This document shows positions 560-53,470 of a stretch of 64,000 nucleotides of DNA, piece by piece. This DNA comes from Haliotis rufescens (lineage: Eukaryota): the NCBI RefSeq assembly GCF_023055435.1, contig NW_025963890.1, positions 62,496,001 to 62,560,000 on the forward strand, written 5' to 3'. The notes below the pieces were generated by a model that saw only the letters and a program-made list of their open reading frames with translations, was not told the DNA's origin and ran no database searches. The translations under genes and the position numbers were made by a program. Numbering within the stretch: the first letter of the stretch is position 1; every line of letters begins with the position of its first letter.

Positions 560-822
560 GACCAGTGAAAATCTAGAGTAGAGTAGGTCTTCAGCAACTC
601 ATACTTGGCGTAAAAGGCGACTATGCTTGTCGTAAGAAGCGACAAACGGTATCGGTCGGTAAGGCTTGGACTTGGTTGATGCATGTCATCGTATCCCAAT
701 TGCGTGGATCGATGCTCATGGTGTCAATCACTGGATTGTCTGGTCCAGACTCGATTATTTGCAGAAAGCCGTCATATAGCTTGAATACTGCTGAGTGCGG
801 CGTTAAACAACAAACAAACAAA
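560..822 (+). mobile_element. Head-less SINE-like element (CCCGTGAAG...GTCGTAAGAGGCGACTAA...GCGGCGTTAAA(CAAA)n)
   Basis: Dispersed copies on + at ~12095-12321, 31203-31275/37538-37735 and 53243-53470. Copies on - at 3311-3470, 14693-14885, 18085-18250, 40490-40680, 43815-44055, 49615-49745 and 52400-52620. The 3' tail is LINE-like. Confidence 0.8.
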
Positions 823-5131: not shown

Positions 5132-5545
5132 TTTGCTTCTGCTTAATGTGATACATTGTGCTTCCATTTAAAGGTTTCCAATAGATAACGTGATTTTCGT
5201 GACTTGCCTAGAGCATGAATTCTTTCTGTGTGATTACCAGCTGGATAGTTCCCTTGTCAAGATATATACAACAGAATTTATGCAGATGTTGCATGACCTT
5301 TTTCACGAAGCCTGCATGTAAAACGATAACCCATATAATATATGAAATTCTTCAGTCTGAGATGTTTTGAGAAAATCGGAAGAACTGGACGACTGCTGAG
5401 CATCATTGTTGTTAATATTTTAGTTCAGTGCTCGTATGTGTAATTGTGCTATGCGTTCATTGAACTCAAATAACAATACATTTACACTTCTTCTTTAAAA
5501 TCTTATCACAGTGTTAATTGTTCATATGAACGGGGCATACAGAAT

Positions 5546-16548: not shown

Positions 16549-17419
16549 ATTGTTTCTGGTGTATGTGCATTAAAACGGAGAGGTATTTAAGGGTGTTTTA
16601 AAAGATAACGCGATGCGTGACTAACATTATTCTAGTCAGCTTGAATTCTTATCTCTTGGAATGCTTACATTGACACATTCCAGACTATGTTTATATCACG
16701 CATTAAATGGAACAGTCTAGATTGTACATGTGGAGGCTTTAACATGTAAAACTTTTTTTTGTATTCTATAATCGTAAAAGGATGGGATGTCAGGCTTTAG
16801 TCCTTGGATATGAAGTTATTTGACATAATCTATGGCGTCAAAAAGTCCGTGTCTCACCTCCAATGGTTTTTAGAACTGGGACACATACTGTAAAAACAAC
16901 AAACCATCATGAAAATTATTAAAAACCAATACTCAACTCAAATGCCCACTACTTTTTTGAAAACAGGTTCTGTGCTTCCAAGTCCTATAAATGCAGATGT
17001 GACACATTATTTGGACAATTTGTCAAAAATGAAAGTACATGTCATCTGAAATGTACTTGGAAAACAATATGTTAAATGATGGAGTTCCAAGTTGATAACA
17101 TCTATGTGCAATTTGGTCAACATGACTGACAGGCCAGAGGTAGGGGTCGCCACGTGCACTAATTGTGTTCCCCACCTTGCTGATCTTTTTGTTGAGGCAT
17201 TTGTGTCAAAATGTCTTCTCCGATTGGCAATATCAAAACAACATTTGGCCAAGTACTTATAACTTAAGCTACGGGTATATACATGATCTAAATTCGTCTC
17301 TTTATGATTATAAACCTATTCCCTTTCACTGATTTACCCACCTTAACTAGAAATAAAAGGGACCAGTGAAACCGCCTCATACTTAGTTGTATGTATACAT
17401 GTTGTTCAGAGATATTAAA

Positions 17420-17650: not shown

Positions 17651-18459
17651 TGTGGAGTGTGATATAATTTGTACTGAAATAAAATGTTGACATTGAATTA
17701 TAGGATTGTCGGTGACTTGTCAACTATGTCAGTCATTATGTCTTGTTAATCTAAACCATGTCTTTACACAGAAAATCTGTTGTTGTCAATATATAGAATA
17801 TTTTAATGAAAGTTGATTCAGATAATATTTGTGAAATAATTGGTTACGATCAAGGTAAGACACATGTCTTCATTTAACATTATTTGGCAAAGTATACTTA
17901 TGCGTACAATGCCTTATCTATTTTAATTCTAAGTAAGTTTTGACACTATTACTGTAGGCCTTTCTATTGCTTACTGTCACAGAACGTAAAATCTTCAAAG
18001 GTGATGCAACTCTGCACAGCGAATTACGGTGCAAAGACGACAAAACGACAAGACGACCCGTCCCTAAGGATGTTTTACAACTTTATTGTTTGTTTGTTTG
18101 TTTAAAGCTGTTCTCAGTAAGATTCCAGCTGTATGACGGCCGTCTGTAAATAATCAACCAAGTCAACAAGTATGACCTACAGATCCTCTTAGTCGCCTCT
18201 TACATCATTCTTGGGTTGCTGAAGGCCAATTCGAACAAGGATCTTCACTGGGATGCAATTTCATGATTGAAACCAGGTAATATGTTGACTCAATAGCACA
18301 TATCTATGTGATGTATAATCAGATATCTGTTATTTTTAATTTATCTTTCAAGGATAACCAAGGTCTTAGTGCATGTCCATAAGTAGCATGCTAACTTGCA
18401 ATCTATTCCAATCTCTTTCAAAGAAAACAAATGCAAAAACAATCTTTGGATATTTATTT

Positions 18460-19839
18460 GGAACGGGACACGGGTTTTCTTCCAGTTCTCCAACCTCTTC
18501 TTCATCATGTCCACTAGCTCAGGACGTTTGGCTGAGAGGTCGAAGTGTTCCGTTGGATCTGCAGTAATATTGTATAGCATGAAGGGAGGGAACTGTTGGT
18601 TATCAGCTTGATAAACACGTTCATCAATTCCCAGATGTGGTGGAGGAGCCAAACCATTGTGATCTCCCGGACTTCCTTGCATGAGTTAGAGATCTCCATA
18701 CCGTATTGCAGCTGCTTCCTGCTCATCGTAGATGTTGTAGACGAACTCATTCCGCTTGGTGGGTCCGCCATTGATGAGCATGTCGTACTGACTGACTCCG
18801 TCCATGTTGGGGTCTGTGTTCTCTCCACCACCCAACTCCACCAAAGTCGGGTACCAGTCTACAGCATGCATCATTCCAGTGTTGAGATAGCCTTTCTTTT
18901 TCAGAAGGGTTTTACTGTAGATAAATCCGGTGCCTTTCGTACCCCCTTCCCATAGAGTATTTTTGGCTCCTCGTAAAGGCACGTTATTTGATGCTGTATA
19001 TGTGGGACCACCATTATCGGTTGTAAAGACTAACAAAAGATTGTCCACGAGACCTTTGTCTTCTAATGCCTTAGTGATATTCCCAACAGCTTCATCCAAT
19101 GCACTCACCATTCCACAATAGACCCTTCTGCTTTTAGTTTCTATGTTCTTGTACATGTTTTCATATTTAGCTGGAACTTCAAGAGGTGCATGTACAGACT
19201 GGAATGGAAGGTATAGATAAAGTGGCTTACTGTTGTCGTGGTTCTCAATGATTTCAACAGCCCGGTCCGCAAACGCATTAGCAGAATAGCAGAATAGGTC
19301 TCATTGGCGCTTCTGTTGATGGTCAAGTTGAAGCGAAAATCCAGCCCCACTTCATCCCTACTTTCCTGTCTCATGTGAGTAAAGTAGTCCTCCATTCCAG
19401 AGTAATATCCAAGATAGGAGTCAAAGCCTCTCTCTGTGGGTGTATACTTCTTGTTACAGAATCCAAGATGCCACTTTCCAACCATGTGAGCATCATAGCC
19501 AAGTTGTTTAAGTTTTTGTGGTATTGTTGTTAGATTGGCCGGCAGGTGTTTTGCTTCGTTGACCAATATAACGCCATCTTGTAGTCCGGTGTGATAAGGG
19601 AAATATCCTGACATGAAGCAGTTTCTTGAGGGCGAACACAAAGGCTGGACGTAAGAAGAGTTGAGGTTGACTCCAGCTTTGGCCAGTCTGTCCAGGATAG
19701 GTGTGATCATTTGAGGGTTCCTAAATCCAACATCGTTCCAGCCGAGGTCATCAGCGACTATAAATACAATGTGAGGTTTCTTTGCACATTCACAGATAAC
19801 AAAAGTCAGAAGAATAAAGACAGCTCTTTGGAGATTCAT
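18460..19839 (-). pseudogene. Arylsulfatase B-like pseudogene, copy g3
   Basis: Close paralog of g5 with three lesions: an 8-nt tandem duplication (gcagaata x2, 19281-19296) causing a frameshift, an AAA>TAA nonsense codon at 18686-18688, and deletion of the last ~24 codons at ~18460. Confidence 0.92.
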
Positions 19840-20007
19840 TTTGCTTCTGCTCAGTGTGATACATTGTGTTTCTATTTAAAGGTTTCCAATAGATAAAGTG
19901 ATTTTCGTGACTTGCCTAGATTATGAATTCTTTCTGTGTGATTACCAGCTGGATAGTTCCCTTACCACAGAATTTATGTAGATGTTGCATGACCTTTTTC
20001 ACGAAGC

Positions 20008-29848: not shown

Positions 29849-32800
29849 TGAATTGAATAAATGTAAGATTTGGTAAAAGACAAAATATGATTTTGACTGC
29901 ATTTTTTTCAGGACACCAAGCATGACTCGCATGACTCTGTATAGCCGTATTTTTGTCAGCTTTAATGTTTATCCTCGGAGGAAATGCTTACATCGACACA
30001 TTCCTTATTATGTACATGTTGAGGCTTAAAACTGCTTAAATATGAAATCTATTGACATAATCGCTGTTGGCGAAGGGGTCCATGTTCTCCTCCAGACTTG
30101 GTATATCAAACAGAAACACCATCGAATTAAATATGAAAAGTCAACGCACATATCTGATTTTGAAGACAGACAACAATGCTTCCATGCCCTATAACTCCAG
30201 ATGTTACACATTATTTGTATTTGCCAGGCCAGTGCAAAGACTTGGGGATAGTGTGCCGGTTTGTTGAGGGAGAAATCTGAAAAAAAACGTGCATCAGTAA
30301 TGGGTCCATTAAATGTACCACCCAATCCCTGTCTCAAAGAATAACCACAATCCTTGATACAACCAAGTGGTGAGTGAGCGAGTGTGTGGGTTAATGAATG
30401 ATTGAGTGAGATGTTATGCGGTTTTAGCTATGTCACGACCAAGGAATACAGAAAGGGCATCACGGACATGGGGTATCTTCGGTGACGAACGCTGTAACAA
30501 CTTTATGTTGCAGAAAGTATTTGAGACAAGCGTAATTGATACCATGTGGATTCTCCAAAACTCTGCTCAAATGTTTTGTTATATCAGAAAAGAACCAAGT
30601 CCAATTATGTGAATACATTTGATTATCAACATTGTACAATAATATTCCGCAAGAAATCTGAATTATATATTTCATTCATCGACCCAAGAGCATTTGTCAC
30701 TAAACGTGGTGACCATAGATATAGTCATATCTTTAACTGCAAGGTTCAGGACAATATGTCCAACATGAAAGTTAAATTCATGTGAAATGCTGAACCTTAC
30801 CTTATTGATAACATCAATGCGGAAGTTGGTGGACAGTATTTTTAGGCAAGAGGTAGGCGTCTCCATAGTGTTCCCCTCCTTGCAGATCTCCGTGCGAACT
30901 GGGAACATAAAACAAAATTTAGCCAAGATGTTTAACTTAAGATCTGTGACGCATCGGTGATACTAATGATATCCGATGCAATTCCCCATTCAGGTGAACA
31001 ATTGACTTGCCTTTCATGTGTTTGTGACGGATGCTACCTTTAGGGCAGGTCTCACCTTTTCGCGTACACGTGGTTTCATCACCATATGGTAGTGATTCAT
31101 AAACACATGTTTATGTTACAGTCGAGATCGTACAATGGAGACTTCTCATGATTAGTGATGTTTTTTTTTCGCTTTTATCACACGTTCTCTTTTCTTGACT
31201 GGACCGTTGAAGATCCGGGTAGAGTAGGTCTTCAGCAACCAATACTTGGCGTAAAAGGCGACTATGCTTGTCGTATGTGTGTGTGTGTGAGTTAATGCTT
31301 TACGTCACATCGGCAATATTTCAGCCATGTTGTGACGAGAAGTTAGACATGAAATATACATATATTTAAACTTTATAAAAATCTGTCATCGAAGGACAGT
31401 ATGATAACTAGAATATCACAGATAAGATTTAAAACTAGTTGTGGAACATTTAAAAGCATTAAGTATTAAGGAACAACACAATATAAAAATGGGCTAGAGA
31501 TCGTCAGTAACTAAAGGGAGATCACCACACCAGGGACCATGGGGACTTACAGTACCTTTGCTTCCTGCATGGGCCCTGGCAGGATTTATATCACCCTACA
31601 GTCACTGACGATAATTGACCAGTTAAGCCTAAGATTAAAATGACAAAAATACTACGTTTAAAAGCCTGGCATGCATAAAAATACTTCGAATGATTTGGGA
31701 CTTACATACCCTCTTAGGGGGACAATAATTTTACGCTACTTCAACCCCCCTCGAGGGTACAGCCACTAACAATCTAAGTTATTAATTAGCACCACCAATG
31801 TCTAAAAACTTATTATGGACAACAAAATTTATGAATTAATTCAATTTCTTTTAAAAAGCACAATATTAAATGAGAATGTACGTGATTAAAAAGGTCCTTT
31901 ACTGTTTTTACATGATAATATTTATCCCTACAATCAAGCAGGACATTCAAAAGATACTCATGTGTATATCTTGAATGGCCAATACGACATCGTCGCATTA
32001 TGACCTCTTCAAATCTGGACTGACAGCCCAAGTAGGTGTAACCGATATTTGGTTTAATTTCATGTAATTTATTGATACCTACTTGGGCGTCCCACTTCTG
32101 TTGCATAAGATCTCGGATGTAAGATCGAATCATGGGTTTATAATCAGTGTATGGGATCAGAAGTGGTGTCACAGATTTGTTGAGGGGTGCTTTTGCAGCA
32201 GCATCGGCCATTGTGTTACCAATGATACCAACATGGCTTGGTAACCAACAAAAGACGATGTCATATTGGCCAGTAGCAAGATCATTAAATAATTCGAGAA
32301 TTTCGATTAAAAGTGGATGTTTTGATGACATATTTTTAATCGCCTGAAGGCATGAAAGAGAATCTGAAAACAGTATGAATTGTTTATGTTTAGCTTGATT
32401 ACGGATATATTTAAGTGCTGTAAAAATGGCGTTTGCTTCTGCAGTGAATATGGAACTGTTATCAGGTAAACGTGAAGATATTGTTCTGGATCCAATGACG
32501 GTGGCACTAGCGACTGCGCCATCATCCTTGGATCCATCGGTAAAGATATATTTATAAGTGTCATAATTGTTTCTTAATTGACTGTATTCTTGTTGGTAAA
32601 TTAATTCGTTAGTGTCTGATTTCTTTAGCTTTGTTAATGTAAGATCTACCTCTGGCTTTACCATTTGCCAAGGAGGAGATGAGAAAAGTTTAGTAGGAGC
32701 TATATCTTGGAGTTGAATATTAGAAGCTGATATTGCAGATTTTATTCTGATTCCGAGTGGTGGAGTAAGTGTTGATTTCTTATTGTAAAGATCCTCGTAG

Positions 32801-35731
32801 AGAGGATGGAATATGCATTCAATAGCTGGATTGGACTGATTAGGAAATAATTTAGTGATGTATTGTAAAGATAATTTTAAACGGCGTTGTTTAAGAGAAG
32901 GCTCATCTGCTTCTATATAGAGACTGTGAATGGGAGACGTTCTAAAAGCTCCAAGGCAAAGCCTCAGGCCTTGATGATGGATGGTATCGAGTTTTTGTAA
33001 ATTACTTTTGCAGGCTCCACCATAGACGATGGAGCCATAATCAAGTTTTGAACGGATTAGTGACCTGTATAAGTGTAAGAGAGTTGTTTGATCCCCTCCC
33101 CACTTTGAATTAGAAACTACTTTCAATAAGTCGAGTGCCTTCAGGCATTTAGCTTTTAGGTATTTAATATGTGGAAGGAAAGTTAAGTGGTTATCAAAAA
33201 TAAGTCCCAAGAACTTGGCCTCCTTTGATAGGAGTGCCATTCAGAAATAGTTCAGGGTCCTTATGTGGCTTATATTTTCTGCAGAAATGTATACAATTAG
33301 TTTTTGATTTGGAAAATTTAAACCCGTTTTCCAAACACCACTTGTTAATTTTATTAAGACATAATTGTAATTGCCTTTCTATTGTGTGCATATTTTTACC
33401 ACGACAAGATAGATTAAAATCATCCACAAAAAGTGATCCATCAACTGAATCATTTAAAACTTTTGACAAACTGTTAATTTTTATACTGAATAAAGTGACA
33501 GACAAAATACTGCCTTGTGGGACACCCTGATCCTGATTATAATGATCAGACAGGGTTGTACCCACTCGGACTTGAAATTGCCTGTCTGTTAAAAACTGGG
33601 ATATAAATTGAGGCAGACGGCCTCGTAATCCAAAATCATGAAGATCTTTTAAAATACCATGTTTCCATGTTGTATCGTATGCTTTTTCTAAATCGAAAAA
33701 GATCGATACAGCATGTTGTCTATTTACAATGGAATTTTTAACGAACGATTCTAAATGCACTCAGTGATTGATAGTACTTCTGTTCTCCCGGAAACCGCAT
33801 TGTATATTGGTAAGAAGATTATTTGTTTCCAAGTACCACACTAATCGATTATTTACCATGCGTTCTATAGTTTTACAAACACAGCTAGTGAGAGATATAG
33901 GTCGGTAATTTGATGGATCAGAATGATCTCGCCCAGGTTTGGGAATGGGGATAACAATGGCATTATGCCATGAAGGTGGAAACGTCCCTGATGTCCAAAT
34001 GTCATCGAATATAGTCAACAAAGTTTCAAGGCATGATTCGGGCAAGTGTTTCAGTAGCTGATAATGAATATTATCAGCGCCTGCTGCTGTATCATAAGCT
34101 TGCCCTAAGGCAGTATATATGTTGTGAAAATACCTCATTGTAATCTTCACCATTATCAGATGTAAAATTTACTTTTTTCTTTTCCTGTTGGAGCTGATAT
34201 TTTTGAAATTCAGGAACGTAATTTGATGAAGACGAATGTTGAGATAACGTTTTCCCAAGTCTATTGGCAATATCAGATTTATTCGTTAGCAAAGTATCGC
34301 CATCCTTTAGATGGTTTACTGTAGAATTTGATCCCTTGCCTTTGATCTTTTTGATCATGTTCCATACCTTGGACATAGGGGTACGAAAGTTAATTTTTGA
34401 GACATAAGTCTGCCAGGATTGACGTTTATTTTGCTTAAATAGACGTCTTGCCTTGGCATTTGAAATTTTAACAGTATTTAAATTATGGACAGTACGGAAG
34501 TATTTCTCCACCTTCTTACGACATTTCCTAGCTTGTTTGAAAGTGTCATCAAACCACGGTTTACGAACACGTGGGTTGATCGAGGACTTAGGTATTGATT
34601 CATCAGCAATTTCATTCAGTTGATCTGAGAAAAACTGAATCGGGTCAGTAACATTCTGAAAAGACGTAGGTAGTAATTTATCTTTGCATAAAGATTGAAA
34701 TAAAAGCCAATCAGCCTTCACAAAAGTCCATCGAGGTGAAGGTGGATCATCAGTGGGATGAATGGGCTTAAGCACCGTGGGGAAATTGTCACTCCCACAT
34801 AGGTCATTATGGACGGACCATGAGAATTCATTCAACAAAACTGAATCCGTCAAAGACAGATCTAATGATGAATACGTACCAGTTGCAGGGTGTAAGTAGG
34901 TGTCCGAGTCATCGTTAAAAATGCAGAGGTCATTATCAGAAACAAAATCCTCGATGACTTTATCCTTTTGATTAATGATAGAACCTCCCCATAGAGGATT
35001 ATGCCCATTTAGATCACCCATGATGAGACAGGGCTTTGGGAGCTGGTCGTACAGTTTTTGGAGATCATTACGCAGAAGATTTGAGGATGGAGGAATGTAT
35101 AAGGAGCAAAGTGTGAAGGCAATATGCAGTGGAAGTCTAACTGCAACAGCTTGCATATTCGTGTCAAGCGGAACAGGACTGTGAACTACGCCCCGCCGCA
35201 CCAAAATAGAAGCTCCTCCAGTAGCTTTATCTCCCGGAGGAGAGAAGGAATGATACGAACTATACTGCCTTAAATCAAATTTGTCGGTTGTTTACAGGTA
35301 CGTTTCTTGTAAAGAAATTGCTGATGGACAAATATCCGTTGATAATAATTGCAGTTCGTTAAAATTGTGCCGAAGTCCTCGGCAATTCCATTGAATTAGA
35401 TTCGAATGATTCATGGTGGTTCTACCGGAGATCGTTCACGTAAACGTGAAGAGGAGTCACCACTGTTTTGGTGTGAAGATGGGGTGACATCCATCTCAAG
35501 AGGCTCAAAGACATTATGAACATCTATAGATGTGCCAGTGAGAGTGGGGATCTTAGTTGTGATTTTTCTGTTTTGTTTTTTCTTTTGGTTTTTTTCCATT
35601 TCAGTTGATGGTTTGTTGGTAGCTGGTATATCAGGAGTGGGTGTAGAAGGGGCCACAACCTGAGTCACAATGATAGAATCTGGAGACATTTCACCTGGGC
35701 TGACAGAATGAGTTGTTTGACTGTCACATGA

Positions 35732-35901
35732 GTGAGTGAGTTAGTGAGTATGGTTTTACGCCGCTTTTAGCAATATTCCAGCAATATCACGGCGGGGGAA
35801 ACCAGAAATGGGCTTCACACATTGTGCCCATGTCGGGAATCGAACCCGGGTCTTCGGCGTGACGAGCGAACGCTTTAACCACTAGGCTACCCGACCGCCC
35901 C
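35732..35901 (-). mobile_element. tRNA-derived SINE (Asp-like head) inserted in LINE3 ORF1
   Basis: A box TAGCCTAGTGG, B box GGTTCGATTCC and LINE-like tail with (CTCA)n. TSD gactgtcacatga at 35719-35731 and 35902-35914. Confidence 0.92.
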
Positions 35902-37480
35902 GACTGTCACATGATGTAGTCAGAGGCAGCGGGTGTTCAGAATGTGTCCACGTCAAGTCCGTCTGACATTCTATAGATCTACTGGTTGAAGGGCGAGAGA
36001 CAGCAGCAGCAGCAGCAGCATAAGATTGTTTGGATGAAGGTGTCCGGCTATCATAGAGTTTTTTCGCATCCAAGTAACTGACGTTGTTTTGACATTTGAT
36101 TGTCAAAATGTCTTTTTCACGTGTCCAAAAAGGACAGGATTTTGATGACGCTACATGTTGACCCTTACAATTTGTACATTTCAGGTCTGCTGTACAGCCT
36201 GAACCATCATGATTTCCACCACCATGGAGGGCAAACAGTCGGACGATCACATGATTTGGAGCCGTGGCCAAACTTCTGACATTTGTAACATCGGAGCGGA
36301 TTGGGGACATACACCTCCACTCCGATGTTAAAATAGCCTGCCTTAATAGATTGTGGAATTGTTGGAAGAGAAAAGAACAAATAGGTATTTGTTGGAACGA
36401 TATTTTCACCATCTTTTCTATTGAAACGTTTCACTGATGTGACACTTTGTCCTTTGAGTTCTTCCAAAATGTCTTCTTCTGACATTTCTGCCAGGCAACG
36501 AGCTCTGTCGCGGATGATCCCCCGACTCGAATTCAACGTTCTGTGTTCGGAAACAACAACTTCTGTGTTAGCAAAGCTAGTACATTTTAAAAGATTAATA
36601 GCCTGCTGTCTCCGTGCACACTCCACCAAAAGAGAGCCGCTCCGGAGCCGTGAAACATTCTTCACCTCACCACAGATGCCGTCAATGGCTTTAGAAATGG
36701 CGAAGGGATTGATTTTCAAAGGTAGTTGATTACGTGATTCCACTACGATAAACCGAGCCCAAGAATTTGAAGTTTGTGAAATAGAAGCATCGTCGTCAGA
36801 TGAGAAAATCTCAGCTTCCAGACGTCTCTTCTTGTCATTGCGGTTTGAACCAGATATATAGTGAGCCATGATGAAATTAATGTATTCAGCACCCCTGCTC
36901 ACCCACCAAAGAGCGATGTTGTCCTGCACCGGATCTCCAACATGCAAACATCAGGGATACAGAGGTGTTATACTCAAGTAAGAACAACATGAATAGCTGT
37001 ATTTGTCTATCAAATAAAATGTCAGGCTGGTTCGGCCCATGGCAAGAAATTGAAGACATACAGAACTCAGAGGTCGAAAGTACCAGATTGGCCCATGAGC
37101 CACCGCCTTCTGGCGTAAGACTCTAGGCAATTTATTCAATCCAAAATTTAGAATTCACACAAGTTATGGATGGCCAAGACCGAAATATACATTAAAATAC
37201 AACACATGTGTGTATATACAATATTACACACAGGGCCTGGCATGACCAGCCGATTGATAAGACCGGGCCCATCTTACCACCCGTCTAGGCGAAGTAAGGG
37301 TCGAAGTAGTGTGTTGGGCAAAGGAACACTGTTCCTGGAACCAGTGCCCTCAACTACCAGACTCCCGTCCTCCGCCGACACAGGGACGCAACCCACGGCA
37401 AACAGGTTGCCCATTTTAGTCGCCTCATACGACCAGCAATGGGAGGCTGTGGAAATATTCTGCCCCGGTTCCACACAGGG

Positions 37481-37538
37481 GAAGAGCTATTAGCGTAACC
37501 CAGCACTAACCACGAGGAGGTTGCTCTTCACGAGTGCC
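37481..37538 (-). ncRNA. Predicted HDV-like self-cleaving ribozyme at the LINE3 5' terminus
   Basis: GGCACTC GT GAAGAGCA ACC TCCTCGT GGT TAGTGCT GG GTTACG CTAA TAGCTCTTC. This gives P1 with a G1-U wobble, P2, P3, L3 UCCUCGU, P1.1 CC/GG and J4/2 GCUAA with catalytic C at 37493. Confidence 0.85.
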
Positions 37539-38527
37539 TATGCTTGTCGTAAGAAGCGACAAAAGGGATCGGGTGATCAGGCACGCTGACTTGGTTGATG
37601 CATGTCATCGTATCCCAATTGCGTGGATCGATGCTCATGATGTCAATCACTGGATTGTCTGGTCCAGATTCCATTATTTACAGGTAGCCGTCATATAGCT
37701 TGAGTGCGGCGTTAAACAACCAACAAACAAACAAACTTTTCTTGACTGACCATCATATTTAGATGTTACTGAAGGATGGAGTAGGGCAGTTATGGATTAA
37801 ACAATCATATGTCGATTAAAGACTACAATGGCATATTGATACATTAATTAATGATATCCTTTGTACAGAAATTAAATGTTAACATTGGTACAGTCAGAAT
37901 CTTACAATGGATTTCTTATGAGTACGGAAGGGTTTTGTAGTTGTTTATACATGTTGTCTTGACTGACGATCACTATGTGGATATCACTGACGGATGGAGT
38001 AGGACAGTTATGGATTAAACAATCAAATATCGATCTATCCATGAAATATAATGGCATGCCATGAGTATGCCAATGGCATATTGACATCACGTAATGATTA
38101 TCCTTTGTACAAAACATTAATATTGACATTGAATTGTTGGTGACTTGTAAAATATGGCAGCCATAATTTCTCACAACTCTTAACCATGTCTTTACACGGG
38201 AAATCGTTTTTTGTCAAAACACAGAATATTTAAGTTGGTTCAGAAACTGTTCGTTAAATAATTGGTTATGATCAAGGCATCAGTACATTAGGTTAAATAG
38301 ATGGCTTCATTTAACATTATTTGGCGATGTATACTCCTGTCATACAATGTTATATCTAGTTTGATTCTAAGTATGTTTGACACCAATGACTGTAGATCTT
38401 TACTGCCAACTGTCACATGACTTAAAACCTTCAAGGGTGATGTGTTTACGATAGACAGTTAAAACATTTCCACATGTCCTTGAATGACATCTTCTGACTT
38501 GTAGCATTTGTTTCGTTGCAACAACAA

Positions 38528-40224: not shown

Positions 40225-40898
40225 TATATTTAAAACGGATTTCATTGCTATAAATATATATTTGGGTGATACCTGGTTCTACACAAACACCACTGTGTTA
40301 TGTAAGATCTATGTCGCATACCTTTATTACTTTAACAAACTGAGATACCTGAACAAAAATACAACTGCAAGAAAAAACTTCAAAACTTGTAAGAGAAAAT
40401 TCTTGAATAAAAGGAAGCTATCGTAAAGAGATCAGCTTTAAATACATCAAGAATTTGAAGACAAAAATTTATTTAAAAAATATTATGTTTGTTTTGTTCT
40501 GTAAATAATCGAGTCTGGATGGAATAGACATTCCACTGACTGACACCATGAGCATCGATCCACGCAAATGGGATACGATGGCATGCTGTCAGCGAGCCTG
40601 AACACCCGATCCCGTTTGTCGCCTCCTACACCAAGTATGGGTTGCTGGAGACCAATTCTAACAAGAATCTACACCGGTGTGCACTTACTGAGGGAAACCA
40701 GGTAATATCTTGACTCATTTACACATATCCACACATGCATCTATCAATTTTAACTTATCTTTCAGGAATCATCACCATGTTCTGATATAAACACCAAAGT
40801 AGTATGCGAACTTGCAATCTATTCCAATATCTTTCAAAGAAAAACAAATGCAAAAAACAATCTTCGGATATTTATTTTGTATGACAGCATAGTTTGTA

Positions 40899-42338
40899 TC
40901 AACACCACCCAGGACTCCATACACCGCCGTAGTATTTCGGGTCCGCCCTTGGAACAGGAGAAGGGTCCTGAGCCGGGACGCGGGACTTCTTCCAGTTCTC
41001 CAACCTCTTCTTCATCATGTCCACTAGCTCAGGGTACTTGGCTGAGAGGTCGAAGTGTTCAGTTGGATCTGCAGTAATGTTGTACAGCATGAAGGGAGGG
41101 AACTTCTGGTTATCAGCTTGATAAACACGTTCGTCAATTCCCAGATGTGGTAAAGGAGCCCAACCATTGTGATCTCCCGGACTTCCTTGCATGAGTTTGA
41201 GATCTCCGTACCTTATGGCAGCTGCTTCCCGCTCGTCATAGATATTGTAGACGAACTCATTCCGTTTGGAGGGTCCACCATTGATGAGCATGTCGTACTG
41301 ACTGATCCCGTCCATGTTGGGGTCTGCGTTCTCTCCACCAGCCAGCTCCAACAATGTCGGGTACCAGTCTACAGCATGCATCATTCCAGTGTTGAGGTAG
41401 CCCGTCTTCTTCAGAAGTGTTTTACTGTAGATGAATCCTGTACCTTTCGTCCCCCCTTCCCACAGAGTATCTTTGGCCCCTCGTAAAGGCAAGTTATTAG
41501 CAGCATCATATGTGGGACCACCATTATCGGTTGTAAAGACTAACAACAGATTGTCCATGAGACCTTTGTCTTCTAATGCCTTAGTGATATTCCCAACAGC
41601 TTCGTCCAAAGCACTCACCATTCCACAATAGACCCTTCTGCTTATGGTTTCTATATTTTTGTACATGTTTTCATATTTAGGTGGAACTTCAAGAGGTTCA
41701 TGTACAGACTGGAATGGAAGGTATAGATAAAGTGGCTTACTATTGTCGTGGTTCTCAATGATTTCAACAGCTCTGTCCGCAAACACATTTGCAGAATAGG
41801 TTCCATTGGCGTCTCTTTTGACAGTCTTGTTGACGCGAAAATCCAGCCCCACTTCTTTGAGTTTCTGGTGCACGTGAGTAAAATACTCCTCTGCACCAGA
41901 GTAATATCCAAGATAGGAATCAAAGCCTCTCTCTGTGGGTGTATATTTCCAGTTACAGAATCCAAGATGCCACTTTCCAACCATGTGAGCATCATAGCCA
42001 AGTTGTTTCAGTTTATGTGGTATTGTTGTTAGATTGGCCGGCAGGTGTTTTGCTGCGTTTATCTCAATAACTCCGTCCTGTAGTCCAGTGTGATAGGGGA
42101 AATATCCCGACATGAAGCAGTTTCTGGAGGGCGAACACAAAGGCTGAACGTATGAAGAGTTGAGGATGACTCCAGCTTTGGCCAGTCTGTCCAGGTTAGG
42201 GGTGATCATTTGAGGGTTCCGAAATCCGACATCATTCCAGCCGAGGTCATCAGCGACTATAAATATTATGTGAGGTTTCTCTGCACACTCACAGATAAAT
42301 AGAGTCACAATAAAGCATAAAGCCGATATGAAATTCAT
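40899..42338 (-). CDS. Arylsulfatase B-like sulfatase, copy g4 (479 aa)
   Basis: Intact ORF with MNFISALCF signal peptide, CSPSR and all catalytic motifs. It has a one-codon deletion in the variable loop (HQKLKEVG). Confidence 0.95.
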   Translation of the reverse strand: MNFISALCFIVTLFICECAEKPHIIFIVADDLGWNDVGFRNPQMITPNLDRLAKAGVILNSSYVQPLCSPSRNCFMSGYFPYHTGLQDGVIEINAAKHLPANLTTIPHKLKQLGYDAHMVGKWHLGFCNWKYTPTERGFDSYLGYYSGAEEYFTHVHQKLKEVGLDFRVNKTVKRDANGTYSANVFADRAVEIIENHDNSKPLYLYLPFQSVHEPLEVPPKYENMYKNIETISRRVYCGMVSALDEAVGNITKALEDKGLMDNLLLVFTTDNGGPTYDAANNLPLRGAKDTLWEGGTKGTGFIYSKTLLKKTGYLNTGMMHAVDWYPTLLELAGGENADPNMDGISQYDMLINGGPSKRNEFVYNIYDEREAAAIRYGDLKLMQGSPGDHNGWAPLPHLGIDERVYQADNQKFPPFMLYNITADPTEHFDLSAKYPELVDMMKKRLENWKKSRVPAQDPSPVPRADPKYYGGVWSPGWC

Positions 42339-43902
42339 ATTGTTTCTGGTGTATGCGGTAAAACGTAGACGTATTTAAGGGTGCTTTGAAAGATAACGCG
42401 ACTCGTGACTAACCTTATTTTAGTCGGCTTGAATTCTTATCTTTTGGAATGCTTACATTGACACATTCCAGACAATGTTTATATCAGGCATTAAACAGAA
42501 CAGCCTAGATTGTACATGTGGAGGCTTAAAAATGTAAAACTAATTTTGTATTCCATAATCGTAAAAGGATGGGATGACAGGCTTAAGTCCTTGGATATGA
42601 AGTTAATTGACATAGTCTGTGGAGTCAAAAGAGTCTGTGCTCACCGCTAATGTTTTTTGGAACTGGGACACATACTATTAAAACAACAAACCATCATGAA
42701 ATTATTAAAAACAAATGCTCAACTCAAATGCCAACCACTTTTTTAAAAACAGGTTCTATGCTTCCAAGTCGTATTAATGCAGATGTGACACATTATTTGG
42801 ACAATTTGTCAAAAATGAAAGTAAATGTCATCTGAAATTTACTTGGAAAAAAAGGTGAAATGCTGGACTTCCTAGTTGATAACACCTACGTGCAATTTGG
42901 TCGACATGACTGACAGGCCAGAGGTAGGGGTTTCCACGGGCACTAATTGTGTCCCCCTCCTTGCTGATCTTTTTGTTGAGGCATATGTGTCAAAATGTCT
43001 TCTCCGATTGGCAATATCAAAACAACATTCGGCCAAGTACTAATAACTTAAGCTACGGGTATATCCATGATCTAAATTCGTCTCATTATGATTAAAAACC
43101 TATTCTCTTCCACTCATTTAACCACCTCAACTAGAAATAAAAGAAACCAGTGAAACCGCCTCATACTTAGTTCTATGTAGTCAACTTTCCCTTTCTGTCG
43201 AGCAATTTTCCAGCATTTGGTGTCTACTTTCTGCATCTGTTTATGCACTATCAAGCATGCTCCGTCTATGAACATTTCAAAGAGCGTCATGTGACTCTTG
43301 ATTGATTGGGGCTATACCATTCAAGGCCTTTGTTAAGCTTACAAAATGTTTTATGGTTAAATGTGGAGGGTAATATCATTTGTACTGAAATAAAATGTTG
43401 ACATTGAATTATAGGCTTGTCGGTGACTTGTCAACTATGTCAGTCATTATGTCTTGTTAATCTAAACCATGTCTTTACACAGAAAATCTGTTGTTGTCAA
43501 AATAGAGAATATTTTAATGAAAGTTGATTCAGAAAATATTTGTGAAATAATTGTTACGATCAAGGTAAGACACATTAGGTTCAATACATGTCCTCATTTA
43601 ACATTATTTGGCAATGTATACTTCTGCGTACAATGCCTTATCTATTTTAATTCTATGTAAGTTTTGACACTATAACTGTAGGCCTTTCTATTGCCAACTG
43701 TCAAAAAAAACCGTAAAACTTTCAAAGGTGATGCAACTCTGCACAGCGAATTACGGTGCAAAGACGACTAGACGACAAGACGACCCATCCCCAAGGATGT
43801 TTTACAACTTTATTGTTTGTTTGTTCCACGCTGTTCTCAGTAATATTCCGGCTGTATGACGACCATCTGTAAATAATTGAGTCTGGACAGTTCCATGGTT
43901 GA

Positions 43903-43960: not shown

Positions 43961-44290
43961 AACCAAGTCAGCAAGTATGACTTACATATCCTCTTTGTCG
44001 TCTCTTACACAATTCTTGGGTTGCTGAAGGCCAATTCGAACAAGGATCTTCACTGGGATGCAATGTCATGGTGGAAACCAGGTAATATGTTGACTCAATA
44101 ACACATATCTATGTGATCTATCATCAGATATCTATTATTTTTAATTTTTCTTTCAAGGAATCACCAACGTCTTAGTGTATAACTCCCGAAGTAGCATGCG
44201 ACCTTGCAATTTATTCCAATATCTTTCAAAGAAAAACAAATGCAAAAAACAATCTTCGGATATTTATTTTCTATGACATCATAGTTTGTA

Positions 44291-45733
44291 TCAACACCAC
44301 CCCGGACTCCATACACCGCCATAGTATTTCGGGTTCGCCCTTTGAACAGGAGAAGGGTCCTGAGCCGGGACACGGGTTTTCTTCCAGTTTTCCAGCCTCT
44401 TCTTCATCATGTCGACTAGCTCAGGATATTTGGCTGAGAGGTCGAAGTGTTCAGTTGGATCTGCAGTAATATTGTACAGCATGAAGGGAGGAAACTTCTG
44501 GTTATCAGCTTGATAAACACGTTCATCAATTCCCAGATGTGGTAAAGGAGCCCAACCATTGTGAGATCCCGGACTTCCTTGCATGAGTTTGAGATCTCCA
44601 TACCGTATTGCAGCTGCTTCCCGCTCGTCATAGATGTTGTAGACGAACTCATTCCGTTTGGTGGGTCCACCATTGATCAGCATGTCGTACTGACTGACTC
44701 CGTCCATGTTAGGGTCTGTGTTCTCTCCACCAGCCAGCTCCACCAATGTCGGGTACCAGTCTACAGCATGCATCATTCCAGTGTTGAGGTAGCCTGTCTT
44801 CTTCAGAAGGTTTCTACTGAAGATGAAACCAGTGCCTTTCGTTCCCCCTTCCCACAGAGTATTTTTGGCTCCTCGTAAAGGCAAGTTATTTGATGCTGTA
44901 TATGTGGGACCACCATTATCGGTTGTAAAGACTAACAAAAGATTGTCCATGAGACCTTTGTCTTCTAATGCTTTAGTGATATTCCCAACAGCTTCGTCCA
45001 ATGCACTCACCATTCCACAATAGACCCTTCTGCTTTTAGTTTCTATGTTCTTGTACATGTTTTCATATTTAGGTGGAACTTCAAGAGGTGCATGTACAGA
45101 CTGGAATGGAAGGTATAGATAAAGTGGCTTACTGTTGTCGTGGTTCTCAATTATTTCAACAGCCCTGTCCGCAAACACATATGCAGAGTAGGTCTCATTT
45201 GCGCTTCTGTTGATGGTCAAGTTGAAGCGGAAATCCAGCCCCACTTCATCGCGACTTTTCTGTCTTATGTGAGTATAGTAGTCCTCTTCACCATTGTAAT
45301 ATCCAAGATAGGAGTCAAAGCCTCTCTCTGTGGGTGTATACTTCTTGTTACAGAATCCAAGATGCCATTTTCCAACCATGTGAGCATCATAACCAAGTTG
45401 TTTCAGTTTTTGTGGTATTGTTGTTAGATTGGCCGGCAGGTGTTTTGCTTCGTTGGCCAATATAACGCCATCTTGTAGTCCGGTGTGATAGGGGAAATAT
45501 CCCGACATGAAGCAGTTTCTGGAGGGCGAACACAAAGGCTGGACGTAAGAAGAGTTGAGAATGACTCCCGCTTTGGCCAGTCTGTCCAGGTTAGGGGTGA
45601 TCATTTGAGGGTTCCTAAATCCAACATCGTTCCAGCCGAGGTCATCAGCGACTATAAATACAATGTGAGGTTTCTCTGCACATTCACAGATAACAAAAGT
45701 CAGAAGAATAAAGACATGTCTTTGGAGATTCAT
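44291..45733 (-). CDS. Arylsulfatase B-like sulfatase, copy g5 (480 aa)
   Basis: Intact ORF with MNLQRHVF signal peptide, CSPSR and all catalytic motifs. Confidence 0.95.
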   Translation of the reverse strand: MNLQRHVFILLTFVICECAEKPHIVFIVADDLGWNDVGFRNPQMITPNLDRLAKAGVILNSSYVQPLCSPSRNCFMSGYFPYHTGLQDGVILANEAKHLPANLTTIPQKLKQLGYDAHMVGKWHLGFCNKKYTPTERGFDSYLGYYNGEEDYYTHIRQKSRDEVGLDFRFNLTINRSANETYSAYVFADRAVEIIENHDNSKPLYLYLPFQSVHAPLEVPPKYENMYKNIETKSRRVYCGMVSALDEAVGNITKALEDKGLMDNLLLVFTTDNGGPTYTASNNLPLRGAKNTLWEGGTKGTGFIFSRNLLKKTGYLNTGMMHAVDWYPTLVELAGGENTDPNMDGVSQYDMLINGGPTKRNEFVYNIYDEREAAAIRYGDLKLMQGSPGSHNGWAPLPHLGIDERVYQADNQKFPPFMLYNITADPTEHFDLSAKYPELVDMMKKRLENWKKTRVPAQDPSPVQRANPKYYGGVWSPGWC

Positions 45734-46149
45734 TTTGCTTCTGCTCAGTGTGATACATTGTGTTTCTATTTAAAGGTTGCCAATAGATAACGTGATTTTC
45801 GTGACTTGCCTAGAGCATGAATTCTTTCTGTGTGATTATCAGCTGGATAGTTCCCTTAGCCCAGAATTCATGTAGATATTGCATGACCTTTTTCACGAGA
45901 CCTGCAAGTAAAACGATAACCCATATAATATATGAAATTCTTCAGTCTGAGATGTTTTGAGAAAATCGGAAGAACTGGACAATGTTACATCTGCTGAGCA
46001 TCATTGTAGTTCATATGTTGCTTAACATTCAGTGCTCGTATGTGTAATTGTGCTCTGCGTTCACTGGACTCAAATAACAATACAATTACCCTTCCCCTTA
46101 AAATCTTATCATAGTGTTAATTGTGCATATGAACGGGGCATACAGAATA

Positions 46150-47739: not shown

Positions 47740-49200
47740 GTTTTAAATTTGCATGTGTTTGTAACGGGTGTCACCGGTGGGACAGGATATACTAATCTGT
47801 TCGCGTACACGTGGTGTCAACACTATTTGATAGTGATTCATAAATATCCTCATGGTTTGGTCGGAATCGTACAATGGATTTCTTATGTTATGGAAGGGTT
47901 TTGTAGCTTTTATTATATGTACTGTTGACGATGTCGACTGAAGGATAAAGTAGGGCAGTTATGGATTAAACAATCATATATCGATATATCGATGAAAGAA
48001 TATAATGGCATACATATTCATACATCCAACAATGATACCATGTGTACAGAAATTTAATGATAACGTTGAATTATTGCCTTGTCGGTGACTTGTAAAATAT
48101 GTCAGTCACACTTTCTCATAAGTCTTAGCCATGTCTTTACAACGACAATCGTATGTTGTCAAAATCGAGAATATTCAAATGAAAGTTGGTTCAGAAAATA
48201 TTTGTGAGGCAATTGATCACGATGAAGGTCAGATACACATCAGTTTAAATACATGTCTTCCTGTATCATTATTTTGCGATGTATTCTTGTCATACAATGT
48301 CATTATATCTATTTTGATTCTAAGTATGTTTGACACTAATTACTGTAGACCTTTCTGTTGCCAACCGTGGCATGACTTAAAACTTTCAAATTTGATACGT
48401 TTCCGACAGATAAAAGAGATTTTTTTCACATCTTCATTAAATGGCATCTTCTGACTTGTAGCATTTGGTTCACATTGCAAATAATAGAATAAGTATCTTT
48501 CAATGGTCGTGTTGTTTAAATATGAGTTTTGAAAAGAAACAAAATTATCAACAGTAACTTTTATCCACAAAATCACAGATCCTCGGTGAGCTGTATGTGT
48601 TACACAATAAAATGAAATGAAATTAAATGAAGCTTGCAGTGCCCCCCTTCTTGCAAATGGGGGCCAGAAGAAGTTAACATCTACGCTAAACAAGGTTAAT
48701 TGATTACATTTTTACTTTTACAAATTACTTTTGAGTGAAAAAGTATGAAGAACATGTGTTGTTGCGAAGTAACGAACTTTCTGATATTTTAAGGGTACTT
48801 CAAAGCGACAACTTCTACACGTGCAGTGTTAATGTTGTAAAGTGAGTGAGTGAGTATGGTTTTACGTCGCTTTTAGCAATATTCCATCAATATCACGGAG
48901 GGGGACACCAGAAACGGGCTTCACACATTGTACCCGTGTCGGGAATCGAACCCGGGCCTTCGGCGTGACGAGCGAACGCTTTAACCACCAGGCTACCCGA
49001 CCGCCCCTAATGTTGTAAAGGACACAAATCCACAAATACTATTTCGTATATGTTGTAAAGGTTTTGACCTCACTATGGAGAAGAACAGCTGCCACTGGTA
49101 CCTTTTAGTTGTCACTGTGTCAATATTACTTCACTGCTGCCAGTATGATCGGTATATCTTCACACAGTACATCTAAATCACAGGGGCACTTATTGCTCTT
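47740..49200. repeat. Older, more diverged copy of spacer X
   Basis: Matches ~400-2030, e.g. tatggattaaacaatcatatatcgatatatcgat and ctaagtatgtttgacac. Confidence 0.7.
48843..49007 (-). mobile_element. tRNA-derived SINE, same family
   Basis: TSD taatgttgtaaag at 48830-48842 and 49008-49020; A and B boxes present. Confidence 0.92.
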
Positions 49201-49759
49201 TCTGATACAAGGGGGTTTCAGAGTGAATGAGTTGGGTTTACAACCGCCCCTAAATAATATATGTCAGCTTGATGGGAGTGTAAAAGTTGTGCAGGTCATT
49301 GACGTTTATCGCCTTTGTGAAACACACGGGCATAGGAGTGGTGTTGATATACTACCAATGGTAATTCTCAGGATGAATCTGAGGTACAATCCCCGACGGT
49401 TGGATGGCGGCTAGGCCAGGGGACGGAAACTTTGTATTACTTAGTCAAACGTGATCCTGTGAAGACACAATTAGAAAGTGGGCATTTGATCTCAAATTGA
49501 AGAGTCCCTGAATTCGACTAACAAAATGTCAAATCTGTTAAATTACGTCTGCACAGCGAATTGTGGCGCATTAGGCGACCAGACGACCCGTCTCCAATGA
49601 TGTTTTACCACTTAATTGATTGTTTGTTTAACGCCATACTCAGCAGTATTCCAGCTATATGATGGCCGTGTGTAAATACGCGAGTCTGATCACCCGATCC
49701 GGTTAGTCGCCTCTTACACCCAACATGGGTTGCTGAAGACACAGGGTGCACTTACTCAA

Positions 49760-50219: not shown

Positions 50220-51662
50220 TTAACACCAACCAGGGCTCCATACACCGCCGTAGAATGAGGGGTTTGCCCCAGGAACAGGAGTATTACTCTGTGCCGGAAC
50301 ACGGGACTTCTTCCAGTTCTCCAGCCTCTTCTTCATCATGTCCACTAGCTCAGGGTACTTGGCTGAGAGGTCGAAGTGTTCAGTTGGATCTGCAGTAATG
50401 TTATACAGCATGAAGGGAGGGAAGGTTTGGTTATCAGCTTGAAAAACACGTTTATCAATTCCAAGATGTGGCAATGGAGCCCAACCGTTGTGATCTCCCG
50501 GACTCCCTTGCATGAGTTTGAGATCTCCGTACCTTATGGCAGCTGCTTCTTGCCTGTCATAGATATTGTAGACGAACTCATTCCGTTTGGAGGGTTTACC
50601 ATTGATGAGCATGTCGTACTGACTGATCCCGTCCATGTTGGGATCTGTGTTCTCTCCACCAGCCAGCTCCACCAAAGTCGGGTACCAGTCTACAGCATGC
50701 ATCATTCCAGTGTTGAGGTAGCCCGTCTTCTTCAGAAGTGTTTTACTGTAGATGAACCCAGTTCCCTTCGTTCCCCCTTCCCATAGAGTTTTTTTGGCTC
50801 CTCGTAAAGGCAAGTTATTAGCAGCATCAAATGTAGGACCACCATTGTCGGTTGTAAAGACTAACAACAGATTGTCCATGAGACCTTTGTCTTCTAAAGC
50901 CGTCGTAATATTTCCCACAGCTTCATCCAATGCACTCACCATTCCACAATATACCCTTCTGTTTTCGGTTTCTATGTTCTTGTACATGTTTTCATATTTA
51001 GGTGGAACTTCAAATGGTACATGAACAGATTGAAATGGAAGATACAGATAGAGTGGTTTATTATTGTCGTGGTTTTCAATGATTTCAACAGCCCTGTTAG
51101 CATACACATACGCAGAGTAGGTCCCACTGGCGTCTCTATATGCAGTCTTGTTGAAGCGAAAATCCAGCCCCACGTCACCTTGGCGATCCTCTGACATGTG
51201 AGTAAAATACTCTTCCATTCCAGAGTAATATCCAAGATAGGTGTCAAAGCCTCTCTCTGTGGGTGTATATTTCCAGTCACAGAAGCCAAGATGCCACTTC
51301 CCAACCATGTGAGCATCATAGCCAAGTTGTTTCAGTTTCTGTGGTATTGTTGTTAGATTGGCCGGCAGGAATTGCGCTGCGTTTACAGCAATAGTGCCAT
51401 CTTGTAGTCCAGTGTGATAGGGGAAATATCCCGACATGAAGCAGTTTCTTGAGGGCGTGCATAAAGGCTGAACGTAAGAAGAGTTGAGGATGACTCCAGC
51501 TTTTGCCAGTCTGTCCAGGTTAGGGGTGATCATTTGAGGGTTCCGAAATCAAACATCGTTCCAGCCGAGGTCATCAGCGACAATAAATACAATGTGAGGC
51601 TTCTCTGCACACTCACAGAGAACTATAGTCAAAATAAGATATAAAGCCGATATGAAATTCAT
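50220..51662 (-). pseudogene. Arylsulfatase B-like copy g6 with a single nonsense codon (G38*)
   Basis: ATG at 51662 reads MNFISALYLILTIVLCECAEKPHIVFIVADDLGWNDV*FRNPQM. TGA at 51549-51551 replaces the GGA found in the paralogs. The rest (437-aa ORF 50220-51533) is intact but lacks the signal peptide and the metal-binding DD. Confidence 0.8.
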
Positions 51663-52399: not shown

Positions 52400-52620
52400 T
52401 CTGTTGTTCGTGCGCACTCAGAAATATTCCAGCTATATGACGGCGGTCTGTAAATAATCGAGTCTTGGCCAGACAATCCAGTGATTGACATCCTGAGCAT
52501 CAATCCACGCAATTGGGATACGATGACATGCATCAACCAAGTCAGCGAGCCTAACGTTAGTCGCCTCTTAAATCAAACATGGGTGGCTGAAGACCTAGTC
52601 TATCCCCGATATTCACGGGT
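52400..52620 (-). mobile_element. Head-less SINE-like element copy
   Basis: The reverse complement starts ACCCGTGAATATCGGGGATAGACTAGGTCTTCAG and has the same body and tail. Confidence 0.8.
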
Positions 52621-53242
52621 CTAACTGTTAAATGATTGTTAAAACAACCAAACACACGTATGCTGGTCATAGTCAGGCATGATAACTTATCTGTTTTGAT
52701 GTACAGCTGCAGATTAAGCCCCAACAACCTTCTGAATTATGCTTTGTATTGATTTTTTTATCTACCATATGTTACCATATTAATTATAAGCGACGCCCTC
52801 AGTATTTTCTTGTTGATAAGTGTAAGTCAGAATCTTTCCTCTGAGGCCCGGAAGAAATAGAAAAGCAATTAAATATAAAACCAATGTTATCTATTAAATG
52901 ATATTGCGTCAGATGATCTTCCTTCAAAGATTATCTCAAGCTTTATGTTTCGTGATAAATGATGTCATCATGTTAATGTTAATTTAATAAATCGTCCTTT
53001 GTTTCTTCCATTTGGTGGAAAGTTTGGACAACGACATATTAATGTTTTGTTGCCGAACGACAAAGTATCAGGTGGCTCTTCAAACTTCTACCAATGATAT
53101 TTTAAATTTGTGTTAAACGATTTGAGCTTAAAAGAAACGAATTACATTGCAGCCACTCACACTGTCTTCGCTTCACTAGTGGTCCCATTAACTTTATTCT
53201 CTCTATCACTTCATTACTGCCACTACTTCTAGGAATATTGCA

Positions 53243-53470
53243 CTGTGAAGATTCGGGTTAGATTTTGGACTTCACCAACCCATGTTTGTTGTAAGAGGCA
53301 ACTAACGGGATCGGGTGGTCAGGCTTGGTTGATGCATGTTATCGTATCCCAAATGCGTAGACCAGTGCTCATGATGTCAATTACTGGACTGTTTTTTCCA
53401 GACTCGATTATTTACAGACCGCCGCCATATAGCTGGGATATTGCTGAGTGCGTCGTTTAACAACAAAGAG
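53243..53470 (+). mobile_element. Head-less SINE-like element copy
   Basis: ctgtgaagattcgggttaga...gtaagaggcaactaacgggatcgggtgg...gctgggatattgctgagtgcg. Confidence 0.8.

Follow-up and report, generated by a model that had tools for sequence, protein, structure and literature searches.

LP-SINEs, short retroelements of gastropods and bivalves, were described by Matetovici et al. 2016 (PMC4758252; like the other sources here, cited from its accessible parts) and include Hdi_LP and Hmi_LP of Haliotis, Lsa_2 of Littorina, the oyster LP-SINEs and MESC of scallops. The first 70 bp of these elements correspond to the 5′ termini of Nimb-17_LMi, I-3_DR and RTE-9_CPB, and a putative promoter role was proposed for this head with no test in the accessible text; how head-less SINEs and many I-group LINEs come by an exact 5′ end was left there as a guess. 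A short 5′ hallmark common to dissimilar LINEs and their non-autonomous partners is likewise known from Pr77/L1TcRz of the trypanosomatid ingi and L1Tc, and from bipartite non-autonomous LINEs such as RIME, NARTc and RTE- or Vingi-derived elements (PMC5786205). Among structured RNAs, exoribonuclease-resistant RNAs (xrRNAs) lie in 3′ untranslated regions (UTRs), often in tandem, and require a pseudoknot (PMC8374639); they are also known from sites between genes, where coding RNAs begin (PMC6299227), and a short conserved type occurs across unrelated viruses, including double-stranded RNA viruses (PMC10520033). Cap-independent translation elements such as BTE and PTE are a further class, marked by a 17-nt signature in BTE and by a three-way junction with a G-rich bulge in PTE (PMC10051134). 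Here we describe a ~70-nt RNA module of an abalone genome that resembles each of these systems in part.

The window, as we call the whole stretch of DNA analysed, comprises 64,000 nt of Haliotis rufescens (contig NW_025963890.1, positions 62,496,001 to 62,560,000, forward strand; Table 1). Its minus strand bears a copy of LINE3, a retrotransposon placed in the I group on the basis of the endonuclease, reverse transcriptase and RNase H domains (Pfam) of its ORF2; the reading frames of this copy are broken, and a 13-bp target duplication bounds it (31263–31275 and 37539–37551). A related intact copy (L392) encodes an ORF1 of 420 and an ORF2 of 1,229 amino acids, with 12 ATGs upstream of ORF1. 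LINE3 begins with an HDV-like ribozyme, whose anatomy is complete in another family copy (L002): P1 with a first G–U pair, P2, P3, L3, P1.1 and the J4/2 C form the nested double pseudoknot of HDV-like ribozymes, the window copy having one mismatch in P1. The Rfam model RF02682 scores L002 at 27 bits, below its gathering threshold of 44. All of the best 30 LINE3-family copies, a sample biased to full length, start at the first G of the ribozyme, which is the predicted cut site. The string that the initial annotation placed directly after the ribozyme is exact on the minus strand at 37480–37410, with no spacer to 37538–37481. This LINE form of the module has 761 exact matches genome-wide, against 0 for a reversed control pattern.

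Table 1. Features of the window, numbered from its first base
Feature	Position	Strand	Basis or remark
LINE3, I-group non-LTR retrotransposon copy	31276..37538	-	ORF1 + ORF2, Pfam; ends in (CA)n
HDV-like ribozyme	37481..37538	-	5′ end of LINE3; anatomy parse
H-type pseudoknot	37449..37480	-	covariation
Pseudoknot S1	37480-37476 with 37467-37463	-	
Loop-1 U	37475	-	
Pseudoknot S2	37474-37468 with 37455-37449	-	
Loop 3, end AGAAUA	37461-37456	-	
P3, asymmetric internal loop, P4 hairpin, UAA	37410..37443	-	20-family alignment, covariation
P3	37443-37438 with 37415-37410	-	variable
P4 hairpin, GUCG-7 nt-CGAC	37433-37419	-	invariant
UAA	37418-37416	-	
Further conserved 5′ UTR segment	37290..37409	-	predicted hairpins; outside the motif
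Short element, LP-SINE type, 5′ half	31202..31275	+	interrupted by LINE3; 22-nt hairpin duplication
Short element, 3′ half of the 31202 copy	37539..37735	+	ends in (AACA)n
Short element copy	560..822	+	flanks same as 31202 copy
Short element copy	52405..52621	-	
Short element copy	53240..53467	+	
Older short element copy	40498..40679	-	
Further older copies	18178-18253	-	
	43983-44058	-	
	49692-49747	-	
	12095-12316	+	
tRNA-headed SINE	35750-35900	-	Rfam tRNA, 32.5 bits
tRNA-headed SINE	48841-49013	-	Rfam tRNA, 27.4 bits
Sulfatase-like genes	3689-5167, 15106-16569, 18686-19875, 40899-42374, 44291-45769, 50220-51548, 58335-60005	-	long single-frame
Long inverted repeat	56600-57300	 	flanks ~56960; arm length a few hundred bases

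The 5′ end is far better conserved in the LINE3 family than ORF1. Over the equivalent of 37538–37290, the first 250 nt of three family copies are 97–100% alike, the ORF1 DNA of the same copies being 63–65% alike, and 28 near-identical heads, picked by head similarity, sit on 18 distinct bodies (L391, L392, L001–L030). Such conserved heads on divergent bodies suggest that the 5′ module is either under strong selection or has been repeatedly swapped among LINE subfamilies. The UTR segment that follows the module recurs in a LINE of another animal-like contig (L270:650-830), where its predicted hairpins show a few compensatory changes, and is possibly a third structured domain. In three small-RNA runs of one study, the LINE3 5′ end received 0, 134 and 2 reads, of which 120, all in one run, share one antisense start; a copy of the short element described below received 0, 16 and 1. 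These reads are uninformative on RNA ends.

Elsewhere the window has a tandem cluster of sulfatase-like genes, some of them broken, which were duplicated along with their repeats; the one gene compared with Pfam matches the Sulfatase family. The long inverted repeat overlaps a Tc3-type transposase fragment.

The second carrier of the module is an abundant short element, whose parallel starts had been pointed out in the initial annotation and are present at 560, 31202, 52621 (minus strand) and 53240; its hairpin has 1,140 exact matches in the genome, and the reversed control has 0. LINE3 inserted into the hairpin of one copy, so that the pieces at 31202 and 37539 belong to a single element, and the copies at 560 and 31202, which share flanks, represent one insertion that was duplicated along with the gene cluster. 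Both belong to a subfamily in which 22 nt of the invariant hairpin are duplicated in tandem, with slight changes in the first copy (window 560–640 and 31202–31275; L046, L060, L321, L333, L346 and L347). The claim that the short element has no tRNA A or B box holds for the B box, absent from all of 30 copies taken in genome order, and for a tRNA-like head, A and B boxes within 160 nt upstream being found in 0/30; A-box-like matches, with one mismatch allowed, occur in 15/30, at about +115 to +212, mostly in the tail and never in the head. Exact target duplications of 9–13 bp flank 10 of 59 copies, and the element ends in (AACA)n. The head is 77% identical to LINE3 over 52 nt (E 9e-6). A LINE-type tail is confirmed as to type, with only weak likeness to the LINE3 3′ end (76% over 34 nt, E 0.19), and ~120 nt of the body have no counterpart in LINE3. 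The proposal of a non-autonomous partner built from a LINE 5′ module and a 3′ tail is thus supported, but the element is not an internal deletion of LINE3, with which it has only the head and the weak tail match in common, and the unmatched body speaks against a simple 5′ plus 3′ derivative. A tRNA-headed SINE of the window, one copy of which lies within LINE3 ORF1, has a 3′ tail in common with the element that lacks a head (81% identity over 43 nt).

The LINE-type head of ~70 bp, the lack of a tRNA head, the target duplications and the 3′ short repeats together identify the short element, by its sequence, as a member of the published LP-SINEs, and the head-less kind is thus already known. It is most probably kin of Hdi_LP; the published Haliotis consensus length of 255 bp roughly agrees with its own (PMC4758252), and the scallop LP-SINE head given in supplement 4 of that paper has the same pseudoknot stems, AGAAT and hairpin. 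The module corresponds to the LINE-derived head of those elements, a putative promoter in the published account. The accessible parts of that description give no fold, upstream ribozyme or viral copies, in which the present account differs from it.

The fold of the module was derived from 20 representatives, one per family, hand-chosen among copies with a short loop 3 and aligned by sequence; this genome supplied 3 of them, other animal-like contigs 11 and viruses 6. It consists of an H-type pseudoknot followed by a GUCG/CGAC hairpin, the pseudoknot running in the order S1 (3–5 bp), a single U, S2 (7 bp), S1′, a variable loop that ends in AGAAU(A/U), and S2′. Read in an anchor-only register, the S2 strands, reported earlier as variable in sequence yet paired, indeed pair in 124 of 140 cells; swapping strands among families gave 83 ± 5 and reached the observed value in 0/10,000 trials, a test that related sequences may inflate. 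All five tested S2 pairs vary on both sides by compensatory changes, and they are paired in 94% of cases, against 21–55% in slid registers. S1 is paired in 78/80 (best of two registers; 66 ± 2 swapped), as CCCG/CGGG, CCCC/GGGG, GCCC/GGGC or GCCG/CGGC; the CCGGG taken for a free loop in the initial annotation is accordingly not free, as it pairs with the 5′ CCCG in S1. The variable P3 has 81 paired positions, against 60 ± 5 swapped. A strict pseudoknot score is passed by 37 of 115 metagenome loci with enough flank and by 0 of 282 shuffles. Compensated pairing of this kind shows, at the level of the alignment, that the module is a conserved RNA structure.

The P4 hairpin, earlier noted as conserved, is invariant over 18 nt in the 20 families; since it never varies, covariation lends it no support, and it doubled as the search key. 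When its loop was left free in a scan of viruses, 17 matches were obtained, and paired S2 was seen only in 4 already known, all of the same loop type. The loop, U-A-W-R-A-G-G, has a T-loop-like 5+2 pattern with U1, R4 and A5 in 20/20 and A at position 2. T-loops have seven nucleotides, a Y1–A5 pair, R4, two bulged bases and, not always strictly, G or U at position 2 (bioRxiv 2022.12.26.521914, accessible part). The pseudoknot was missed by minimum-energy folding. Comparison with Rfam gave no match to the motif at E ≤1 for the window or E ≤5 for 17 loci, the models of known ribozymes included; the folds of hammerhead, twister, pistol, hatchet and hairpin ribozymes, compared by eye, do not fit. 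We also dropped the idea that the hairpin loop forms a second pseudoknot with the linker, since the partner is missing in several families. We found no description of the fold or of its viral link in the literature searched, although subscription papers, Repbase reports, figures or bioRxiv supplements may hold one; the structure and its sharing with viruses are apparently new, in an RNA family without an Rfam entry.

The bare 18-mer was found in five viral contigs, and all five have AGAAUA and the pseudoknot upstream. A looser hairpin scan returned 21 viral records, of which 8 have the whole motif and 13 the hairpin only; a model built from animal sequences alone matches the former over full length at 33–66 bits and, in the 13 control records, the hairpin only at 11.5–24 bits. 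Seven of the eight are RNA-virus records, comprising six distinct and unrelated sequences: one with RdRP_3 and an S-domain coat and two tandem motif copies, the second of which pairs 4/7 in strict register (L192); one with RdRP_3 and a nodavirus-type capsid (L191); one with RdRP_3 (L195); one with an A21 capsid, from two data sets (L189/L194); one with RdRP_4 (L201); and one with an S-domain coat, a long frame that has no Pfam match and shows polymerase-like motifs by eye, and again two tandem copies (L188). In all six the motif lies on the sense strand in the 3′ UTR, 6–124 nt past the last stop, in short UTRs of 137–280 nt and 17–122 nt from the record ends, and it is in tandem in 2/6. The eighth record, of a DNA virus (L199, 212 kb), has the motif at L199:7984-8056, flanked by two genes of the same strand and 215 nt ahead of the following ATG, where it may serve either the 3′ end of the first gene or the leader of the second. 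Assembly chimeras are made less likely by the compensated stems, which differ from one viral copy to another, and by the origin of L189 and L194 in two data sets. Since RNA viruses have no DNA stage, the conserved function resides in the RNA, and the module acts as RNA.

A phage collection gave chance matches alone. Prokaryote genomes gave at least 77 matches to a loose pattern, seven of which, among the matches inspected, have the full fold (L231, L243, L249, L255, L268, L270 and L276). These loci lie mostly in animal-like sequence or at contig ends, with microsatellites, SINE tails or LINE UTR around them, some joined directly to bacterial coding sequence, and are likely contamination or chimeric reads rather than genuine prokaryotic copies. 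A tandem array at G000:C57:2176621-2242441 has at least about 100 units of ~600–640 bp with one motif each.

The position of the motif tracks the 5′ end of the short element, as had been suggested. Of 59 copies examined in this genome, 10 have an exact target duplication, and 8 of these start at −6 from the loop-1 U. Among 120 metagenome copies, 78 could be anchored, and in families F1, F2 and F3 conservation is lost beyond −6, the distance from the U to the hairpin ranging from 46 to 120 nt; F4 starts at −4/−5. The −6 start thus holds in four of five families at any hairpin distance, from which it follows that the pseudoknot is the reference point for the 5′ end. Four of the five families begin with a purine (A, G, G and G). 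LINE3-family copies behave differently: none was found to start at the motif among 761 exact copies, in a search with two patterns whose sensitivity, estimated from base composition, is ~40% each and whose 4 and 5 matches all retain ribozyme sequence. This retention argues against a promoter or a second ribozyme at the motif, either of which should strip the ribozyme, with the caveat that the P2 helix of the ribozyme covers the putative −6 site.

The reading that we tentatively put first, while holding it somewhat short of probable, is that the module may be a new kind of block to 5′-to-3′ exoribonucleases, comparable to xrRNAs. Its wider form is held a little more loosely still: a new xrRNA class that would be traded among animal retrotransposons and unrelated RNA and DNA viruses and would set the 5′ ends of promoter-less elements. 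On this view, one that is absent from the initial annotation and fits more of the data, the short element would lack a promoter of its own and be transcribed by read-through from host promoters; Xrn1 or Xrn2 would degrade the RNA lying upstream until halted some six bases short of the loop-1 U. The RNA thus trimmed would be bound at its 3′ tail and copied by LINE proteins, and new copies would begin at the stall point. RNA ends that bear a 5′-OH are not known to be a substrate for Xrn1. In LINE3 the ribozyme would cut first and leave such an end, copies would therefore retain the ribozyme, and the block would serve as a second shield. With 12 ATGs ahead of ORF1 in the intact copy, a block to scanning by the motif would cost little. 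In viruses the block may leave a short 3′ fragment or shield the RNA of a downstream gene. Docking of the 7-nt hairpin loop on the pseudoknot is predicted, which would give an extra contact absent from plain pseudoknots; known frameshift pseudoknots fail to stall Xrn1 (PMC10321173, accessible part). A block to 5′-to-3′ decay would explain with one property the exact promoter-less starts, the retained ribozyme, the viral positions and the tandem copies.

Comparison with the flavivirus classes 1a, 1b and 2, the Tombusviridae-Luteoviridae xrRNAs and coremin reveals a common pseudoknot, 3′ UTR or intergenic location, tandem copies and occurrence in unrelated viruses. The motif has the pseudoknot and the 5′-edge position of xrRNAs, whose edge coincides with an RNA end, the ends of DNA copies standing in for RNA ends here. 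It differs from them in its order, pseudoknot first and hairpin second, and in its occurrence mainly in host retroelements. Flavivirus classes 1 and 2 have a three-way junction plus two pseudoknots (PMC8374639), and coremin (xrRNA-C, PMC10520033) has a 5′ hairpin with a YGAD or YGNNAD loop, an 8–10-nt spacer and a second hairpin, as far as the accessible text describes them. No three-way junction or ring is evident in the motif, its hairpin comes second and has another loop, coremin sequence is absent, and no signature of any known xrRNA class was found. Further observations count against an exonuclease block: the viral copies lie near 3′ record ends, as expected of a translation or replication signal; a hairpin that is invariant over 18 nt and lies 40–120 nt away from the putative halt hints at a protein partner that is conserved; a halt has no requirement for a purine as first base; no trimmed LINE3 copies were found though a few might be expected; and F4 starts at −4/−5.

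The main rival, which we consider rather unlikely, is a cap-independent translation element, similar to 3′CITEs, that would bind an initiation factor or the ribosome; it is in line with the translation or RNP signal offered in the initial annotation and with the near-3′ position in viruses. Uncapped viral RNAs and ribozyme-cut LINE RNAs would thereby be translated, and the short element would reach ribosomes that are making LINE protein. Alu reaches ribosomes via SRP9/14. Such translation elements sit in the 3′ UTRs of small viruses, where the motif also lies, and LINE3 RNA, with its upstream ATGs, would be uncapped. BTE, PTE and TSS resemble the motif in their location in small positive-strand RNA viruses, a short invariant stem-loop and a pseudoknot, and the invariant 17-nt stem-loop of BTE binds eIF4G (PMC10051134, accessible part), which recalls the 18-nt hairpin. 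Against this, the signatures and junctions of BTE, PTE and TSS are absent from the 20-family alignment, the motif also occurs where non-coding elements begin, in the LINE UTR it is followed by a further, separate segment that is conserved and has predicted structure, and the fixed offset of head-less starts from the pseudoknot is left unexplained.

Self-cleavage and an internal promoter, two of the functions offered in the initial annotation, are disfavoured by the copies in RNA viruses and by LINE3 copies that start elsewhere. A new class of self-cleaving ribozyme, cutting six bases before the loop-1 U, is improbable in our view. It would account for exact, structure-measured 5′ ends and invariant core bases, and ribozymes are common at LINE 5′ ends (PMC5786205) and occur in UTRs and tandem pairs of linear RNA viruses (PMC13725137, both in their accessible parts). 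But LINE3 copies keep the upstream ribozyme, even if its P2 helix could mask the site, the bases at the would-be site vary freely in viruses and LINE3, a cut in the viral 3′ UTR would lose the replication end, and no Rfam ribozyme matches. Quite improbable is an internal RNA polymerase II promoter, as proposed for LP-SINEs, perhaps with a second role in RNA like Pr77 of L1Tc. In Nimb and RTE LINEs as in LP-SINEs, the head does occupy the extreme 5′ end (PMC4758252, accessible part), and the purine first base would suit a promoter, but compensatory changes and RNA-virus copies require a function in RNA, spacing to the invariant block varies by >70 nt, LINE3 copies start elsewhere than at the motif, and F1–F3 have no extra G before the start. 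Pr77, moreover, is itself both HDV-like ribozyme and promoter, whereas here the HDV-like ribozyme is separate, upstream and missing from the short element, the body of which is not LINE3-derived.

Very improbable is a mimic of the tRNA acceptor and T arm, the 5′ edge of which would be cut by RNase P or a similar endonuclease: S1 and S2 would stack to 11–12 bp, the loop reads U-N-N-R-A plus two, the 5′-end offset is fixed and the LINE3 leader is locked in a ribozyme helix, yet loop position 2 is A instead of the usual G or U, no 3′ CCA is present, ends fall 1–2 nt before S1 rather than at it, and cytoplasmic viruses would have little use for such a mimic. Least of all do we expect a site at which the LINE's own ORF2 protein would bind to direct 5′ joining, analogous to the R2 RNA 5′ pseudoknot; retention in non-coding partners and the near-identical first 250 nt of subfamilies with divergent ORF1 DNA would fit, but RNA viruses have no such protein and the head is common to Nimb and RTE clades with different proteins (PMC4758252, accessible part).

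The module is thus a covarying 70-nt fold common to retroelements of several animal groups and to at least five kinds of virus. Under either leading function, exonuclease block or translation element, it represents an RNA family missing from Rfam and marks an exchange of modules among viruses and retrotransposons, and it might offer a compact part with which uncapped RNA could be stabilised or translated. xrRNAs in cellular RNA have been named as still to be found (PMC8374639, accessible part). If the module does form an xrRNA class, such an RNA would be present in thousands of copies in animal genomes, the 5′ ends of the elements would come from host RNA decay, and this would be a third route to full-length retrotransposon RNA, beside internal promoters and ribozymes.
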